DNA from: Dehalococcoidia bacterium
Lineage (GTDB): Bacteria > Chloroflexota > Dehalococcoidia > GIF9 > AB-539-J10
Direction of reading: 5' to 3'
NCBI GenBank assembly: GCA_030612025.1
Contig: JAUWOR010000008.1
Coordinates: forward strand, 15,792-79,791
Length of the DNA: 64,000 bases
Below are positions 21,755 through 35,917 of this stretch, piece after piece. Within the stretch, counting starts at the first letter, position 1, and each line of letters starts with the position of its first letter. A program made the translations under genes and the position numbers. The notes under the pieces were generated by a model. That model ran no database searches. It saw only the letters and a program-made list of their open reading frames with translations, and was not told the DNA's origin.

Positions 21755-21839
21755 TGGTGGGGAAGGGGGGACTCGAACCCCCACGCCTTGCAGCACATGA
21801 TCCTAAGTCATGCTCGTCTGCCAATTCCGACACTTCCCC
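21755..21839 (-). tRNA. tRNA-Leu(TAG), long variable arm, encoded CCA
   Basis: GGGGAAGTGTCGGAATTGGCAGACGAGCATGACTTAGGATCATG..GGGGGTTCGAGTCCCCCCTTCCCCACCA. Anticodon loop CTTAGGA. Confidence 0.85.
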
Positions 21840-22045: not shown

Positions 22046-22083
22046 TCAACAATTTGCTGTTAATAAACATCCCCAAATGCAAT

Positions 22084-22261
22084 TCCACACCCTTAAGAGC
22101 GCCCTTGTTGTAACCTTCGTCGTGCTCGCTCGGATATTGAGCATATTGTGAGGCTTGGTGGTTGGGAAAGCCCTGATATGGTGCTCAGATATACTCGGTC
22201 AGTGAAGTTTGAGGATAGTTTGAGGGTTTACTGTGGGCTGGAGACTTTATCTAAAACCTAG
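22084..22261 (+). pseudogene. C-terminal remnant of a tyrosine recombinase (phage-type integrase)
   Basis: HTLKSAL.. (box II-like), then after a frameshift DIEHIVRLGGWESPDMVLRYTRSVKFEDSL (LGH-like + RY catalytic Tyr region). No N-terminal part is present. Confidence 0.5.
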
Positions 22262-28599: not shown

Positions 28600-28745
28600 A
28601 AGGGATGTGTCAATGGTATTCCAATGAGTATTGAGGTTAAGTGCCCACCACAAGACTGTGTCTATGAGGCTTGGCAACGTCCAGTTGGCCACTGCCATGG
28701 ACATATATGGTGGCCAGTCTCTTCTGAATAAAGTTAAGGGGAAAA

Positions 28746-29390
28746 ATGAAGATTACAATTGTTTACGACAACGAAGTAAAGAAGGAGGGACTAAAGGCAG
28801 ATTGGGGATTTTCCGCTCTTATAGAAAATGAAAAGGCGCCGCCAATTCTGTTTGATACCGGTGCCGATGGCACCACATTGCTACACAATATGAAAGAACT
28901 AGACATTGACCCCAAAAATATAGGGATAATAGTGCTCTCACATGCTCATTGGGACCACACTGGAGGGCTTTCTGAGATTCTCAAGCAAAATGAAACCGCT
29001 GAGTTTTACATCCCAAGCTCGTTTAGAAGGGCATTTCCTGCTAGGAAGATAACTACTGTGGGCAAAGAGGCTATTCAAATTTGCCAAGATGTCTTTTCCA
29101 CTGGCGAACTCGGAGGCACAGAGCAGTCCTTGGCCCTCAAGATTGATAAGGGAATATTTGTGGTAACAGGTTGCTCTCACCCGGGAGTGGGGAATATCCT
29201 GAAGGCTGCCTCAAAATTTGGAAGGCTCTATGGAATCGCCGGCGGGTTTCATGGGTTTCGTGACTTTAAGGCTTTAGATGAACTATCGCTAATTTACCCC
29301 TGTCATTGCACTCAATATAAAAGGGAGATAAGAGAGCTATTTAAGGATAAAGCTTTGGAATGTGGAGCCGGATTGGTAATCCAATTGTAG
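28746..29390 (+). CDS. MBL-fold metallo-hydrolase
   Basis: LSHAHWDHTGG motif. 214 aa. Confidence 0.8.
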   Translation: MKITIVYDNEVKKEGLKADWGFSALIENEKAPPILFDTGADGTTLLHNMKELDIDPKNIGIIVLSHAHWDHTGGLSEILKQNETAEFYIPSSFRRAFPARKITTVGKEAIQICQDVFSTGELGGTEQSLALKIDKGIFVVTGCSHPGVGNILKAASKFGRLYGIAGGFHGFRDFKALDELSLIYPCHCTQYKREIRELFKDKALECGAGLVIQL

Positions 29391-30978: not shown

Positions 30979-31023
30979 GTGAGCCGCCAAGGACTCGAAC
31001 CCTGAACCGGCTGATTAAGAGTC
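30979..31023 (-). repeat. 45-nt partial copy of the tRNA-Lys(CTT) 3' portion (att-type direct repeat, distal copy)
   Basis: GTGAGCCGCCAAGGACTCGAACCCTGAACCGGCTGATTAAGAGTC differs from 35844-35888 by one mismatch. The flanking sequence does not complete a cloverleaf. Confidence 0.8.
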
Positions 31024-31161
31024 GCAAGCGAACTATACCACCCGATGCTCCCAAATAGCAAGACGTGCTATAAGGTTTGAGGATTAGACTCATTTTGTAT
31101 CTGAGGTGGCATCAGGTGCTGGGGCATGCTCAGAAGTTTGTTAGCAAAATGTTAGCAAAAC

Positions 31162-31320
31162 TTAGGAGCTTGGGAGAGTCTCTGGTTGGTTCGGTTCTTC
31201 CCTCTTTTCCTGGGAAATTTCTAGCCTGGCGCCACACTTGAGGCAGGTTTGGTGGTCTGGCTCAAGCAATGCCCAGCCATAACAGTGGTAACCACATTTG
31301 GGACATTTTCCTTCTGGCAT
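31162..31320 (-). CDS. 52-aa zinc-ribbon protein
   Basis: Not in the ORF track. GGAGGAGTG SD 4 nt upstream of the ATG at 31320, i.e. just after the stop of the upstream HTH gene. Translation: MPEGKCPKCGYHCYGWALLEPDHQTCLKCGARLEISQEKREEPNQPETLPSS. Confidence 0.55.
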   Translation of the reverse strand: MPEGKCPKCGYHCYGWALLEPDHQTCLKCGARLEISQEKREEPNQPETLPSS

Positions 31321-31323
31321 CGT

Positions 31324-31629
31324 TCACTCCTCCTTCAGAAGGGCGTCGACATCCTGGCGGCGGAATCTCCTATCATGGCGGGGGCCAATACGGTATGATT
31401 TTAGTATTCCGTTTTCACTCCAGTGTCTCACAGTATTGGGATGCAACCCAAGCAACTGAGCTACACCGCTTGTCGTGAGCATAGCCCCAGAGGCTTTTTG
31501 CGGTGATGGTTTCTCCGTGGCAATTTGCCTGACTCGCTCACGACTTATGCCCAACCTGCGACCGATTTCGGCATAACTTAACTCGGCCTTCCTTAACTCA
31601 ACTACCTCATCCCGCGAAGTCATTAGCAC
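31324..31629 (-). CDS. two-HTH DNA-binding protein (sigma-70 region-4-like HTH + excisionase/MerR-type HTH)
   Basis: LSYAEIGRRLGISRERVRQI and MLTTSGVAQLLGLHPNTVRHWSENGILKSYRIGPRHDRRFRRQDV. Confidence 0.7.
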   Translation of the reverse strand: MLMTSRDEVVELRKAELSYAEIGRRLGISRERVRQIATEKPSPQKASGAMLTTSGVAQLLGLHPNTVRHWSENGILKSYRIGPRHDRRFRRQDVDALLKEE

Positions 31630-31714
31630 TGTCAGCCTCCTATAAATCCCGGGTTAGGGAGTCCCTTTTATGGGACTCCCCTTCCGTGATTCTAGCCTTG
31701 AGTTTAGCCAATGT

Positions 31715-34700
31715 TTAGCCCTCAGCCCTGCGGCGCCTGATAACAATAAAGCTACCAGCTATTATAGCCATACCTATAACAATCCACGGCGCCAGAATAG
31801 CTGGCTTATTAACGGGGTAAGCCTCACCACCTACTGGAGGCGCTACTGGGTAGGATTTAGAATCATTGGGATCCGTCTCACCAGGGTCCACCCTCCCATT
31901 GCCATTGAGGTCCTCTTGACCATCCGAAAAGCCGTCGCCATCGGTGTCAGGATTCAAAGGATCGGTAGTCGTGGTAGGATCAGCATCGGGGATGAATACC
32001 GCTGGGTCGGTATCAACTCCCTGTGGTGCGGTGAGACCTTTCTCTGTGCCATCCTGGACTCCATCACCATCTGTGTCTGGGTTGTTGGGGTCGGTTTCGC
32101 CGGCATCCACACAGCCATTCGCATTCATGTCCTCTGAGCTAGCAGGGCCATCCAACAGGCCATCGTCATCTGTATCCCCATCGTTGGGATCAGTTGTGGT
32201 GTCTGGACAACAATCCCCAGGACCACCCTCTTCGACGCAAGTTGGCAAGCCATCGCCGTCTGGATCGTCAGAGGGGGCAGTTAGCCAGGGTGTAACCGTC
32301 ACGTCAGCGCTCGTTTTGTCTCCTGGCCCACCTGGGTTCTCATCGGGATCATCCGGTCCGCCGGCGTTGCCCCACCAGTTGTAGGTGGCGTCTACCACGT
32401 TGCCGGTGGTATCATTGACTCCGAAGTTCGTATTGCCGGAGATGTTGTTGCAGTTTATTGGGTTGTCGTGGCAATTGGTACCTGCCAGCTTAATCCCTAT
32501 ATCGGTGTTCGAGGTGATGTCGTTGTTATAGATTTCGTTGCCGCTGGTATGGGGGCCACACCCCCAGAACAGATAGATACCTTTCTCCGAGTTCCCAGTT
32601 ATGAGGTTCCCGTATATCTCGTTGTCGGGTGAATTCTCCAACATGATGCCGACGGTGTTGTCCGAGATAGCGTTGTTGTCGTAGATCTCGTTGTCATGGG
32701 CGTTGAATAAGTATATACCATATCTAACGCCCCCTCCGGTGTTATGTGATACCTCGTTTTCGTATACCTTGTTGCCGTCGCATCCTATATCCATCCAGAT
32801 GCCCTTCTTGTTGGAGTTAGTTGTATTGTCGTGTATCAGGTTGTTGTCTGCATACTGCATGAATATACCGGTATTCCTCCACCCAGTAATTGAGTTAAAA
32901 GTATTGCCGACAATTTCGTTGCCATTGGATTCATATACCTGTATGCCATAGTCCACCGCGTTATTTGAAAAATCGTTTCCGGATATGGTATTGTTATTTG
33001 CCGAGTTCTCCAGGTAAATGCCGTCCCCAAACTGCAAGTTGCTACCTATATTGTTGGATATAGTGCAGCCAGATGCACCATCAAGCCATATGCCCCTAGC
33101 GGCATTTTGCACGGTGAAGCCGTCGAAGGTTACATTATCGGCTGTTATCTTAACAACAGGATTCGGACCGGGCCCTCCACCATCTATAAACGTGTTCGCT
33201 GCTGTGCCATTGGACTGGATGGTTAGGTTGGCCTTATCCACGGTTATCGGGAAAGTCTCGCCAAGAGCAGCATTGTATGTGCCCTCCGCCACATGCACCG
33301 TGCTCCCAGAAACATTATCAATACCGTCTTGGATAGTGGCAAAGGCATCGTAGCCAAAGGTGTGCCCATCGGCTGGGTCACCAGGACTAAGGCTTGCCCA
33401 ATCGTCGTCTACCCAGACTTCATCGGCTAGGGGCAGAAAACGAATGCCAATATCACCGCCGTCAGAACCAGCATTTTTGCATGGTGACCCACCTTGCAAG
33501 GTGTAATCTAATCCAGCCGCATTAGTCCATAGCGGGTCTTGGTTAATACAACCATTAGCCGCAAGCGCAAGCGTATCCCAGCCATCGTCTATATTGTTCC
33601 ACGTGTCAGTATAAGTAACATTGGGTGCATCGATGCAAAAAGCTTCCCCTCCGTTTGCCACAATGCAGTCTCTAACTGTTCGTGTAGCCGCCCAATTGTT
33701 AAACCCATAACTCTGAAATACATTGGCTACACAGTTTTCAAACACAATTTCACCGGGACACACCCAGTCAGCTTCAAAAGCACCATAACTATCATGAACT
33801 ACGCAGTTAGAAACTGTCCATGTGCCGTCACAACTTCCAAAACGCATACCAAGGCCCTTATAGGAACTCTTGGCATTTTCTACCAGACAGTATTCAATAA
33901 ACCCAACACTTCCAGATAGAGTGTGAAATATCCCTATACCCTTTGGTTTGGGATGCCAAAAGCCGCTACTGTCACCGGTAAACCAGATATGGTTATTCTG
34001 GATATAGACATTTGAGCATTCATGGATGTGGAGTGCTGCTAAGTCGTTCCCTGCGCTGGCCTCATTGTCGCCGCAGCGTTCAAATTTACAGCCGCGCACA
34101 ACAATGTTACCGCCGCTCATTTTACGGAAATTTACGCCTACTCCTCCCTGGTTAGCATCGTTGATGAAGGAACAGCTTTGCACCAGTATTGTATGCACAT
34201 TCGGGTGATAATAATCCGGGCCTGATTGACCCTGTTGGTGATTGGTAATCATACCCCAAGCATAGTAATCCATAGGATTATTCTTCATGGTAAGCCCGAC
34301 AAAACCAATATTGTTACTTGTTCCTTCCAGCCAAAAACCACGGTCTGCACTGGACGCTGGAGTTGGATTGGCTGAACAGTCAATAATCGGAGTATTACCA
34401 CTTTTTGCCCGAACAATCAGTTTTTCTATGTTGTTTATGTGGATATTTCCGTCATAGACAGCTTCATCCTGGATCTCAATGATAGCCCAATCATCTCCGT
34501 CACGCGTGAGAGCACCTTCAACAGCAATCTTCAGGGCATCACCACCACCTGTTACTGTCATCGTGGCAGCAGCATTTAATTTGCTCACCAAACCGTTGAA
34601 GGCCGCAGGCAAATCCGTGAATTCCCCCCACCGACCATTCGGGTCCCATATTACAGTGTCTCTGTACGTATCTGCGTTTGCCTCCACCGTTCCTGCCATT

Positions 34701-34786
34701 GGCACTGCTATTATTCCCAAAGACAACACTAGTGCCAGGGCAACCAGCAAATAAACTGGCTTGGCATACCATTTTGTTTTACTCAT
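31715..34786 (-). CDS. 1023-aa secreted/surface protein: signal/TM, right-handed beta-helix (PbH1/NosD-like) repeats, thrombospondin-type-3-like Ca-binding repeats, C-terminal TM + RRRR anchor
   Basis: N-terminal KPVYLLVALALVLSLGIIAVPMAG. Many N-x-I-x-x-N / GI-x-L repeats. DPNDGDTDDDGLLDG, DPNNPDTDGDGVQDG and DPLNPDTDGDGFSDG. C-terminal ILAPWIVIGMAIIAGSFIVIRRRRAEG. Confidence 0.8.
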   Translation of the reverse strand: MSKTKWYAKPVYLLVALALVLSLGIIAVPMAGTVEANADTYRDTVIWDPNGRWGEFTDLPAAFNGLVSKLNAAATMTVTGGGDALKIAVEGALTRDGDDWAIIEIQDEAVYDGNIHINNIEKLIVRAKSGNTPIIDCSANPTPASSADRGFWLEGTSNNIGFVGLTMKNNPMDYYAWGMITNHQQGQSGPDYYHPNVHTILVQSCSFINDANQGGVGVNFRKMSGGNIVVRGCKFERCGDNEASAGNDLAALHIHECSNVYIQNNHIWFTGDSSGFWHPKPKGIGIFHTLSGSVGFIEYCLVENAKSSYKGLGMRFGSCDGTWTVSNCVVHDSYGAFEADWVCPGEIVFENCVANVFQSYGFNNWAATRTVRDCIVANGGEAFCIDAPNVTYTDTWNNIDDGWDTLALAANGCINQDPLWTNAAGLDYTLQGGSPCKNAGSDGGDIGIRFLPLADEVWVDDDWASLSPGDPADGHTFGYDAFATIQDGIDNVSGSTVHVAEGTYNAALGETFPITVDKANLTIQSNGTAANTFIDGGGPGPNPVVKITADNVTFDGFTVQNAARGIWLDGASGCTISNNIGSNLQFGDGIYLENSANNNTISGNDFSNNAVDYGIQVYESNGNEIVGNTFNSITGWRNTGIFMQYADNNLIHDNTTNSNKKGIWMDIGCDGNKVYENEVSHNTGGGVRYGIYLFNAHDNEIYDNNAISDNTVGIMLENSPDNEIYGNLITGNSEKGIYLFWGCGPHTSGNEIYNNDITSNTDIGIKLAGTNCHDNPINCNNISGNTNFGVNDTTGNVVDATYNWWGNAGGPDDPDENPGGPGDKTSADVTVTPWLTAPSDDPDGDGLPTCVEEGGPGDCCPDTTTDPNDGDTDDDGLLDGPASSEDMNANGCVDAGETDPNNPDTDGDGVQDGTEKGLTAPQGVDTDPAVFIPDADPTTTTDPLNPDTDGDGFSDGQEDLNGNGRVDPGETDPNDSKSYPVAPPVGGEAYPVNKPAILAPWIVIGMAIIAGSFIVIRRRRAEG

Positions 34787-34809
34787 TTTTTCCTCCTTTC
34801 GTTATTTTT

Positions 34810-34869
34810 GAGATTGCCACGCTGTTTGCCACGCCTTCGGCTGACAACTTCGGCTCGCAATGACAGCCC
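34810..34869. repeat. 60-nt REP-like element (GAGATTGC..GCCACGCCTTCGGCT..CGGCTCGCAATGACAGC), intergenic twin of the copy inside the DUF89 gene
   Basis: Aligns gap-free over 60 nt with 58414-58473, with about 8 mismatches. Confidence 0.75.
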
Positions 34870-34919
34870 TGGGGAATGCCCAAGGGCACCGGCATGGGTA
34901 ATTATTATGTTAAGCTGTT

Positions 34920-35336
34920 TCATGGATTGTCACCCTCACCTTTAGCCTCTCCCATCAAGGGAGAGGGAATGCGAGTTTTGGTGCGCCGAAGCAAGGAACG
35001 AACCCAGGCTAAAAGCAAGATTAAATTAAAGGGGTGAGTCATATAAACATCTGCTCCGGATTCCAGAAAATGAATTCCTGCCCTTTCTTCCTTATCTTTG
35101 CCAAGGATAATGATGGGAGCTTTGCATATCTCCCGAATCTGCTTACATGGCTTATCTCCATTCATTTCAGCGAGAGCCTCAGCCATGATTATCACATCAG
35201 GCTCTTTCCTCCGTATTTCAGCCAAAGCTTGCTGACCATCATCAGCAGTTACCACTTGAAACCCTGAGTGCTGTAAGACGAAAGTTAATCTATCCGCTGC
35301 CTGTAGGTGGGGATGAATTAGTAAAATCCTGTCCAT
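34920..35336 (-). CDS. stand-alone pseudo-receiver (CheY-like fold lacking the phospho-acceptor residues)
   Basis: Receiver-like layout, but ILLIHPH replaces the DD pocket, VIIMAEAL replaces the D57 site, ILG replaces T87 and THPF replaces K109. The last ~15 codons (SPLMGEAKGEGDNP) are encoded by a REP-like hairpin (34929-34975). Confidence 0.65.
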   Translation of the reverse strand: MDRILLIHPHLQAADRLTFVLQHSGFQVVTADDGQQALAEIRRKEPDVIIMAEALAEMNGDKPCKQIREICKAPIIILGKDKEERAGIHFLESGADVYMTHPFNLILLLAWVRSLLRRTKTRIPSPLMGEAKGEGDNP

Positions 35337-35537
35337 CGGCTCCTTCAGCTAATATCCTGATAGGGGCTTGCCACCTTTAGTTATCATATATCGTAGCATC
35401 AAGTTTTGTCAAGATGCTTCTAATAACTTCTTTTTATTTCTAGTTGTGCCTAATTTTGGCCAGCTTGATATTCTTGGGTCAAATACAGTAAATTTCGGGT
35501 TTTTAATCAGGCAGGATTGAAAGTAAAGGATAAGTCT

Positions 35538-35729
35538 ATGGTAAAGGAAGATGAACTAAACCGAGGTGTAGAGAGGATATTCCTGACGTTTCGGGAAGCG
35601 CAGAGCTTTTTAGGGATAAGCCATCAAACGATGTATAAGCTTATGAAGGAGGGGCTGCCGTCTCATAAGATAGCCAGGAACCGGGTGTTCTTTAGGGAAG
35701 ACCTTATTAAATGGATAAGAGACCACTGA
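35538..35729 (+). CDS. excisionase-family HTH DNA-binding protein
   Basis: FLTFREAQSFLGISHQTMYKLMKEGLPSHKIARNRVFFREDLIKWI. The ATG at 35538 is preferred over the TTG at 35517. Confidence 0.7.
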   Translation: MVKEDELNRGVERIFLTFREAQSFLGISHQTMYKLMKEGLPSHKIARNRVFFREDLIKWIRDH

Positions 35730-35841
35730 TTGGTGAAGGATTAAGGCAAGGGTTACTTTGAATCTATGCTAGAGTGCGTGAGATTTGACAAGATACTGAA
35801 GCTAGATGCTAACAAAATATTAGCAAAGGGTCTTAACCACG

Positions 35842-35917
35842 TGGTGAGCCGCCAGGGACTCGAACCCTGAACCGGCTGATTAAGAGTCAGCTGCTCTTCC
35901 AATTGAGCTAGCGGCCC
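35842..35917 (-). tRNA. tRNA-Lys(CTT), encoded CCA
   Basis: GGGCCGCTAGCTCAATTGGAAGAGCAGCTGACTCTTAATCAGCCGGTTCAGGGTTCGAGTCCCTGGCGGCTCACCA. Anticodon loop CTCTTAA. Confidence 0.85.

Follow-up and report, generated by a model that had tools for sequence, protein, structure and literature searches.

How did a block of five genes that includes no integrase come to lie between two copies of the same segment of a tRNA-Lys(CTT) gene? The block, here called the islet (30979-35888), was found in a 64-kb stretch of the genome of an uncultured Dehalococcoidia bacterium; this whole stretch is referred to as the window, and all positions are window positions unless another contig or locus is named. The genome itself (labelled G000) was available as an assembly of 1,400,681 bp in 19 contigs, 95.6% complete. 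Related genomes carry G labels, contigs in them C labels and loci excised from them L labels; G003 and G004 are congeners of G000. The islet is probably the integrase-deleted remains of a site-specific integrative element at tRNA-Lys(CTT), similar in kind to a cis-mobilizable element (CIME).

The islet was bounded by a single 45-nt direct repeat (30979-31023 and 35844-35888), the two copies being 98% identical and spaced 4865 nt apart, with A at 30990 versus G at 35855 as the sole mismatch. Read from the sequence, the repeat starts in the tRNA 2 nt ahead of the anticodon loop and stops at the discriminator base. ARAGORN called an intact tRNA-Lys(CTT) at the right end and no tRNA at the second repeat site near 31000, and a 32-mer taken out of the repeat occurred at only two places in the whole assembly, both of them islet ends. 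Since the repeat is restricted to these two ends in 1.4 Mb, chance is excluded. The tRNA search, the repeat search and the genome-wide 32-mer search agree with the sequence-only reading, an earlier note made from the letters of this stretch, which had described a 45-nt tRNA-Lys(CTT) repeat with one mismatch whose second site is not a tRNA. The G+C content was 51-57% from about 31200 to 32700, the left third of the block, 45-52% in the remainder and 41-43% in the flanks.

The same reading had taken the repeat for attL and attR, the attachment (att) sites of an integrated element, and had advised a look for empty-site variants in related genomes; such variants were found in three. In the congener G003, the genes run in the order p234-MBL-YggS-p210-tRNA-Lys-SIMPL-LepB-PyrE with no gene between p210 and the tRNA, and the flanking proteins are 87-100% identical to those of the window. 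Its nucleotide sequence equals that of the window with the left flank joined directly to one copy of the repeat (the core), followed by the 5' half of the tRNA and then the right flank. The tRNA-Lys(CTT) site was also empty in G018 and G020:C51, the empty genomes being thus the congener and members of two other genera. A state in which all relatives are filled and no site is empty, which had been named as evidence for a relic of tRNA gene duplication, is the opposite of what was seen. The islet is a genuine product of integration. The identities of the flanking genes to those of G003 vary gene by gene and point neither to an ancestral nor to a derived empty site.

Two side observations concern these genomes. 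In G003 (L030, 3665-3830), an element of about 170 nt lies between the tRNA and the SIMPL gene; it is of the same general kind, similar to repetitive extragenic palindromic sequences (REP) and miniature inverted-repeat transposable elements (MITE), as a short repeat inside the islet at 34924-34970. In G020:C20 (L032, 10523-10697), a second tRNA-Lys core with a P' arm (see below) is located downstream of acpS and hydrogenase-maturation genes, the canonical site on C51 being empty; this second core copy would be an ectopic scar, unless the bin mixes strains.

Each core is followed on its inner side by conserved DNA, designated the P' arm at the far junction and the P arm at the tRNA (Table 1). 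The P' arm was 75-90% conserved in at least six Dehalococcoidia loci, beside cores of tRNA-Lys as well as of other tRNAs. Both arms carry tandem 11-nt TTAGCAAAATG units, which had been proposed earlier as arm-type recombinase sites. An alignment of six loci showed that the motif block makes up 20 consecutive invariant columns, as against 41% invariant columns elsewhere in the arms, and none of 20000 shuffles matched this run. An 18-mer representing both arm sites had three matches in the G000 genome (3 mismatches or fewer), two of which were the islet ends, in the same orientation; a comparison of the arm motif with viral contigs gave no match. The proposed sites are thus real conserved elements and, as shown next, in intact elements the tRNA-side copy doubles as the end of the coding sequence of an integrase.

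When species-representative genomes were scanned with the P' motif, about 25 Dehalococcoidia contigs matched. In one of them (L100, DIKD01000036.1), the motif formed the 3' terminus of an intact gene for a tyrosine integrase of 424 aa, and this gene reads into an antisense tRNA-Lys(TTT); the integrase ends ..SEQFVSKMLAKNEDL.. and continues over the tRNA, and the DNA that encodes ..FVSKMLAK at its 3' end is the same as the P'-side repeat of the islet. Tyrosine integrases of about 424 aa with an arm-binding domain are termed type A, a name defined in this analysis; they possess the domains Arm-DNA-bind_4, SAM_3 and Phage_integrase. Homologues were present in 94 of the 202 genomes of the order, many of the genes abutting tRNAs (Lys-TTT, Lys-CTT, Arg, Ala, Thr), and the C-terminal V(S/G)KMLA(K/N) was kept across these different targets. 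As a side observation, interrupted integrase homologues in the order had TAG-only breaks in about 16 cases, TAA-only breaks in about 6 and TGA-only breaks in about 3; TAG could be read through in these bacteria.

Complete elements of 5-6 kb with a type A integrase were found at tRNA-Lys(CTT) itself, in G113:C172 (L172), G084:C25 (L171) and G107:C18 (L169/L145), and in the last of these genomes (L145) LepB and PyrE follow the tRNA as in the window. From the far end, their layout is a partial core, about 118 nt, the motif GTTAGCAAAAATGTTAGCA and cargo; the tRNA end consists of an excisionase-family gene with a helix-turn-helix (HTH) domain of the HTH_17 family, a gene for a zinc-ribbon membrane protein, the integrase gene, the motif GTTAGCAAAATGTTAGCAAA, 12-15 nt and the tRNA. 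Their other genes include ones for a Rep-like protein (REP_ORF2-G2P) and a HEPN protein. Their identity block stops in the anticodon loop, at most 2 nt from the boundary in the window, and the tRNA-side motif is equally placed, 12-15 nt from the tRNA end, in the integrase-bearing loci L172, L171, L145 and L100. Of the type A hallmark, an integrase gene running into an antisense tRNA, the islet has the repeat in place at 35809-35828 and the gene absent. By these comparisons, the islet has type A att architecture at both ends, and type A is the likely cognate enzyme of its insertion, as suggested by the shared arm architecture. The attL/attR interpretation is upheld by the exact empty sites in relatives together with integrase-bearing relatives of matching core boundary and arm geometry.

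Another arrangement was considered, namely an integrase gene split by an internal attP as in SSV-type elements of Sulfolobus, because the plus-strand frame at 31077-31241 also reads ..KFVSKMLAK. It was rejected: no long frame runs across the joined arms, and intact elements have a non-coding motif on the P' arm and an integrase gene that stops short of the core.

The enzyme itself was found neither in the islet nor in the assembly. Profile searches of 30979-35888 with PF00589 and PF00239 gave no match, as the earlier statement that the islet has no integrase had predicted, and domain searches of the five open reading frames (ORFs) of the islet revealed no recombinase, relaxase or secretion domains. 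In G000 as a whole, PF00589 matched only a 289-aa gene, a 312-aa gene, both Xer-like, and an 87-aa fragment, while a PF00239 search of the assembly had no match and hence no resolvase-type gene was detected. Searches of G000 by tblastn with integrases of type A and of a smaller class, type B (256-332 aa), gave nothing intact, the islet showing only a weak C-terminal trace, and no type A integrase was found in the G000 contigs, G002 or G003. Among the matches listed, the two Xer-like genes are of the conserved housekeeping type that occurs in nearly every relative. The host Xer recombinases, as used by integrative mobile elements exploiting Xer (IMEX), were rejected as the enzyme, the site being a tRNA 3' half with arm-type repeats and the Xer genes ubiquitous. 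The view that the two G000 recombinases are small integrases of the island type was also rejected, as they are 25-27% identical to type B integrases.

Several traces of other integrases and integration sites were recorded elsewhere in this genome. A C-terminal remnant of a type B integrase (about 50 aa, 43-52% identical) is present at 22079-22231 (G000:C15:37870-38022) beside tRNA-Leu(TAG) at 21755-21839. At 28628-28828, a plus-strand frame, RLSAHHKTVSMRLGNVQLATAMDIYG, resembles KAGVHPKIVSERLGHASIAITLDTYS, a conserved block of type A integrases (E = 0.013 among 3520 six-frame segments); this stretch, 2.2 kb outside the islet and overlapping the start of the gene for a metallo-beta-lactamase (MBL)-fold protein, may by its resemblance be another integrase relic. 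The assembly contains 47 other tRNAs, and tRNA-Lys(TTT) is the only essential one missing; it is not beside tRNA-Gly(CCC), where relatives carry it, and a REP-like element and a HEPN-domain gene were observed beside tRNA-Gly(CCC) in G000 (C16:12163-12862).

In three to four further genomes, an island with both end arms in common and another cargo occupies this site. In G004 (WJOY01000044.1), a 12.4-kb island lies between the tRNA and a core copy matching at 42 of 45 positions. Its tRNA side has a homologue (84% identical) of the 70-aa HTH_17 protein of the islet and the same P arm, and at its far end a zinc-ribbon homologue adjoins the P' arm known from the islet, with GTTTGTTAGCAAAATGTTAGCAAAAC; the cargo consists of an ImmA/HTH pair, a Liv-type transporter and other genes, with no integrase. 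G002 and G015 show the same far junction, after which their contigs end. In G023:C55, the P' arm and a zinc-ribbon gene are located beside a tRNA-Arg(TCG) core, in an integrase-less islet with a HicAB pair. As a side observation on the latter (L136, MNYE01000120.1, 3540-6650 reverse-complemented), an arm of about 117 nt with a motif copy abuts the intact tRNA-Arg(TCG), and the direct repeat runs 28 nt past the tRNA end into half a motif; to judge by this junction, L136 resembles what a deletion between the two motif copies of an older element would leave behind. With the 70-aa HTH_17 protein as query, further loci were found in metagenomes, among them L176 (Ga0114919_10018491), a mosaic variant of the islet that is 95% identical over 2.15 kb and then 88% identical after a replacement of about 1 kb, in which an unrelated stretch takes the place of the N-terminal half of the surface-protein gene. 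The HTH_17 protein of L176 is 100% identical to that of the islet, the pseudo-receiver only 72%.

Integrase genes in shortened form were also observed at this kind of site. G010 has only integrase residues 282-426, adjoining tRNA-Lys(CTT), and L184 contains, in order, a gene for a homologue 76% identical to the 70-aa protein, a conserved 41-nt spacer, a 106-aa integrase remnant and tRNA-Thr(CGT); the first 41 nt of the P arm in the window match this spacer. From their structure, both represent decay intermediates. In the islet, the last 73 nt or so of the P arm (35771-35843) read ..CVRFDKILKLDANKILAKGLNHV. Local alignment of this reading to integrase tails (FDKMLK......VSKMLAK) scored 34 as compared with 24.4 ± 3.8 for shuffles, 59 of 2000 of which reached the score (p about 0.03), a result that hints that the 3' part of the P arm may be a relic of about 22 integrase codons. 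The earlier alternatives, a decayed element or a satellite, were the right pair, and the evidence favours decay from an integrase-bearing ancestor.

The course of events may be reconstructed as follows. A tyrosine integrase would have joined the attP of the element to the segment of tRNA-Lys(CTT) from the anticodon loop to the 3' end, whereby the element would have given the tRNA a new 3' half (35844-35888), the original 3' half (30979-31023) being moved 4.87 kb off. We infer that the enzyme belonged to the family of about 424 aa, whose gene is the last gene of intact elements, with final codons that double as TTAGCAAAATG arm-type sites and matching sites about 118 nt beyond the core on the other arm. 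The gene would have been deleted, rather than never present, in the lineage of the islet and of the G004 island, while the cores, arms, repeats and possibly about 22 relic codons stayed; the cargo between the arms would have been exchanged or rearranged afterwards. The islet would not be self-mobile now, and excision or carriage would be expected only if an integrase of the same family entered the cell.

Several observations weigh against this reconstruction. An empty site can also come from homologous recombination between the 45-nt repeats and is not proof of integrase-mediated excision. When a profile of the integrase C-terminus was run against the six-frame translations of the window and G004, the P arm scored E = 16-21, short of significance. 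None of about 140 related loci showed the order of the HTH_17 gene for the 70-aa protein, an intact type A integrase and tRNA-Lys. Homologues of the 70-aa protein stand more often beside a type B integrase, which is located between the tRNA and the HTH_17 gene, and L213 is such a case at tRNA-Lys(CTT); by this arrangement, the lost enzyme could have been type B. Type A is preferred because the type B loci are without the arm motif. Lastly, the arms of G000 and G004 are 78-90% identical and the neighbouring host genes 91-96%. The arms have thus diverged no less than the surrounding host genes and are old, and on this comparison their divergence points to long-standing, vertically inherited scars with no sign of recent spread.

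The strongest rival to decay is that the islet family is a dedicated satellite that never had an integrase and was moved in trans by the integrase of co-resident 5-6-kb helpers. It could draw on the arm-type repeats, whose conservation far exceeds that of the arm sequence around them, and on the recurrence of an integrase-less P arm with an HTH_17 gene in G000, G004 and L176 and of a P' arm with a zinc ribbon in these and in G002, G015 and G023; the occurrence of the latter module at a different tRNA core in G023:C55 looks as if the backbone had moved or switched target. The tRNA-Lys(TTT) locus, in relatives the commonest home of type A integrase elements, may lie in the unassembled part of G000, about 4%, and a helper integrase element might sit there. 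A dedicated satellite is nevertheless unlikely, given that the arms are as diverged as host DNA between congeners, that G000, G002 and G003 show no type A integrase, that truncated-integrase intermediates occur at the same kind of site and that the P arm has a weak trace of integrase codons. A bolder proposal, that the islet and its kin are live helper-dependent satellites with arm repeats under selection, beside which 5-6-kb type A elements with an excisionase-family and a Rep-like gene would integrate as drivers to move or reshuffle them, is doubtful though conceivable; if true, such a driver-plus-cassette system would explain the regular absence of integrase in tRNA-linked islands of Dehalococcoidia.

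Homologous recombination might instead account for the block, which would then be a cassette brought in, or swapped from strain to strain, via flanking conserved DNA and the arms, and not inserted in this lineage by a site-specific recombinase, with the repeat as an inherited scar. The mosaic structure of L176, with its 95% and 88% stretches on either side of the replacement and its unequal HTH_17 and pseudo-receiver proteins, and the different cargo between the same arms in G000 and G004 fit such exchange. This accounts for cargo turnover but not for the origin of the junctions, at which core boundary, arm geometry and arm-type repeats match integrase-bearing elements point for point; as an explanation of the whole it is very improbable. 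That part of the tRNA gene was simply duplicated on the spot, the genes now in between being unrelated and no mobile element involved, can practically be dismissed, since this reading has the repeat itself and nothing else in its favour, whereas the exact empty sites in three genomes exclude mere duplication, the arms are common to elements at other tRNAs and to integrase-bearing elements, and the G+C content shifts between the left third and the flanks.

Table 1. Features of the tRNA-Lys(CTT) islet, in window positions
Feature	Position	Strand	Remarks
Displaced partial tRNA-Lys(CTT) copy, anticodon stem to 3' end	30979-31023		Far-junction core, attL-type (B-core-P')
P' arm	31024-31165		About 117 nt of conserved non-coding DNA, then tandem 11-nt repeats
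P'-side arm-type repeat TTTGTTAGCAAAATGTTAGCAAAA	31137-31160	+	Two 11-nt units (three in G002 and G023); block noted earlier as 31141-31160
52-aa zinc ribbon	31162-31320	-	Weak Zn_ribbon matches; translationally coupled to upstream HTH gene
101-aa double-HTH protein	31324-31629	-	N-terminal sigma-70 region 4-like HTH, C-terminal HTH_17/excisionase-family HTH
1023-aa beta-helix/NosD-type surface protein	31715-34786	-	Beta_helix 5e-29, NosD 2e-27
138-aa stand-alone pseudo-receiver	34920-35336	-	Response_reg 1e-15
Divergent control region, pseudo-receiver/HTH_17	35337-35516		74-98% identical in L176-L182; weaker likeness in L184 and L197
70-aa HTH_17 (excisionase-family) protein	35517-35729	+	HTH_17 39 bits; reads towards tRNA; alternative start 35538
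P arm	35730-35843	+	89.5% identical to G004
tRNA-side arm-type repeat CTAACAAAATATTAGCAAAG	35809-35828	+	15 nt from core
tRNA-Lys(CTT), intact	35842-35917	-	ARAGORN; 3' part 35844-35888 is the tRNA-side core copy, attR-type (P-core-B')

Re-annotation of the islet by domain searches agreed with the cargo listed before, that is, a surface protein, a pseudo-receiver, two HTH genes and a coupled 52-aa zinc ribbon. The ATG of the zinc-ribbon gene is 3 nt past the stop of the gene for the 101-aa HTH protein and is preceded by AAGGAGGAG; zinc-ribbon homologues adjoin the P' arm in G004, G002, G015 and G023. The 101-aa protein scored 47.4 bits with HTH_17, 36.4 bits with Sigma70_r4 and 48 bits with TIGR01764, the last above the cut-off. 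The large surface protein is composed of an N-terminal membrane/signal segment, a right-handed beta-helix, Asp-rich Ca-type repeats, a C-terminal membrane helix and RRRR, with CglD-like repeats at residues 823-986. The pseudo-receiver, as read from its sequence, has no acidic pocket, phospho-Asp, Thr or Lys, and the last codons of its gene are supplied by the REP/MITE-like repeat at 34924-34970, which recurs in G009 and G021.

Both HTH genes had been called excisionase-type, and both indeed belong to the HTH_17 family, the 70-aa branch of which is widespread beside tRNA-linked integrases. As to their role, the pseudo-receiver and the 70-aa HTH_17 gene form a conserved divergent pair in L176, L177 and L180-L182, and in L180-L182 no tRNA follows the 70-aa gene; a regulatory role is by this pairing as likely as an excisionase role for the tRNA-side protein. 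Pseudo-receiver homologues (53-71% identical) were also observed directly upstream of zinc-ribbon homologues in L089 (G023:C111, 1465-2890) and L092 (G001:C5, 863-1608), pairs that adjoin OmpR- or LuxR-type regulators. To judge by gene neighbourhood, the small genes of the islet may form a regulatory set for the cargo and not recombination factors, and the cargo as a whole, in which a pseudo-receiver and small DNA-binding proteins flank a large variable surface protein, is a candidate for a cell-surface module peculiar to the strain.

Integrase-less tRNA islands are a known and ordinary kind of element, of which the islet is one more case. What is new is the empty site, the arm family and the connection with one particular integrase family and with small parent elements that carry a Rep gene; an integrase family and the TTAGCAAAATG motif can thereby be tied to integrase-less tRNA islands of Dehalococcoidia, and the parent elements appear very small, 5-6 kb with a Rep-like gene. 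In the streamlined 1-2-Mb genomes of Dehalococcoidia, a class with few cultured members, flexible islands may arise via repeated integration of small drivers followed by loss of the integrase, and the motif and the enzyme make this testable.

In comparison with known systems, the islet resembled most closely the CIMEs related to ICESt1 and ICESt3 of Streptococcus. Like these, it is located at the 3' end of a conserved gene, has functional-looking att sites whose arms recur in integrase-bearing relatives, and encodes no recombinase; tandem and decayed forms are found at the same site in relatives. Kinship of the att sites is seen in the core boundary, the spacing of about 118 nt and the tandem repeats, which match L172, L171 and L169, and the five ORFs of the islet include no integration or transfer genes. 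It differs from the CIMEs in its host, a member of the Chloroflexota (Dehalococcoidia), and in its parents, which are elements of 5-6 kb with a rolling-circle Rep-like gene and not conjugative.

Islands and prophages in tRNA genes reportedly owe their integration to tyrosine integrases whose crossover lies in the anticodon loop. The islet agrees with such islands in its identity block from the anticodon loop to the tRNA 3' end, in having a complete tRNA on one side and a displaced piece of it on the other, and in the empty sites, and it departs from the classic form in having no integrase beside the tRNA but at most about 22 possible relic codons, which have weak alignment support. In attP sites of the lambda type, arm-type sites on the P and P' arms are bound by the N-terminal domain of the integrase. 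Similarly, the islet has tandem short repeats on both arms in the same orientation, and the linked integrases possess an Arm-DNA-binding domain that would putatively bind them; unlike in lambda, the P-arm sites of type A elements fall within the last codons of the integrase gene, where they specify the conserved ..VSKMLAK tail. The ssrA-specific islands of Dehalococcoides, which are said to use a serine recombinase and to target the transfer-messenger RNA (tmRNA) gene, occur in the same class, vary between strains and likewise have the 3' part of a small-RNA gene as a direct repeat at their borders, whereas the islet is at tRNA-Lys, its linked enzyme family is that of tyrosine integrases and its genome has no resolvase-type gene. 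From phage satellites such as the P4-like elements and phage-inducible chromosomal islands (PICI), it differs in ORFs that include neither an integrase nor helper-hijacking genes for replication, capsid redirection or packaging, and from IMEX in a site that is not dif-like.

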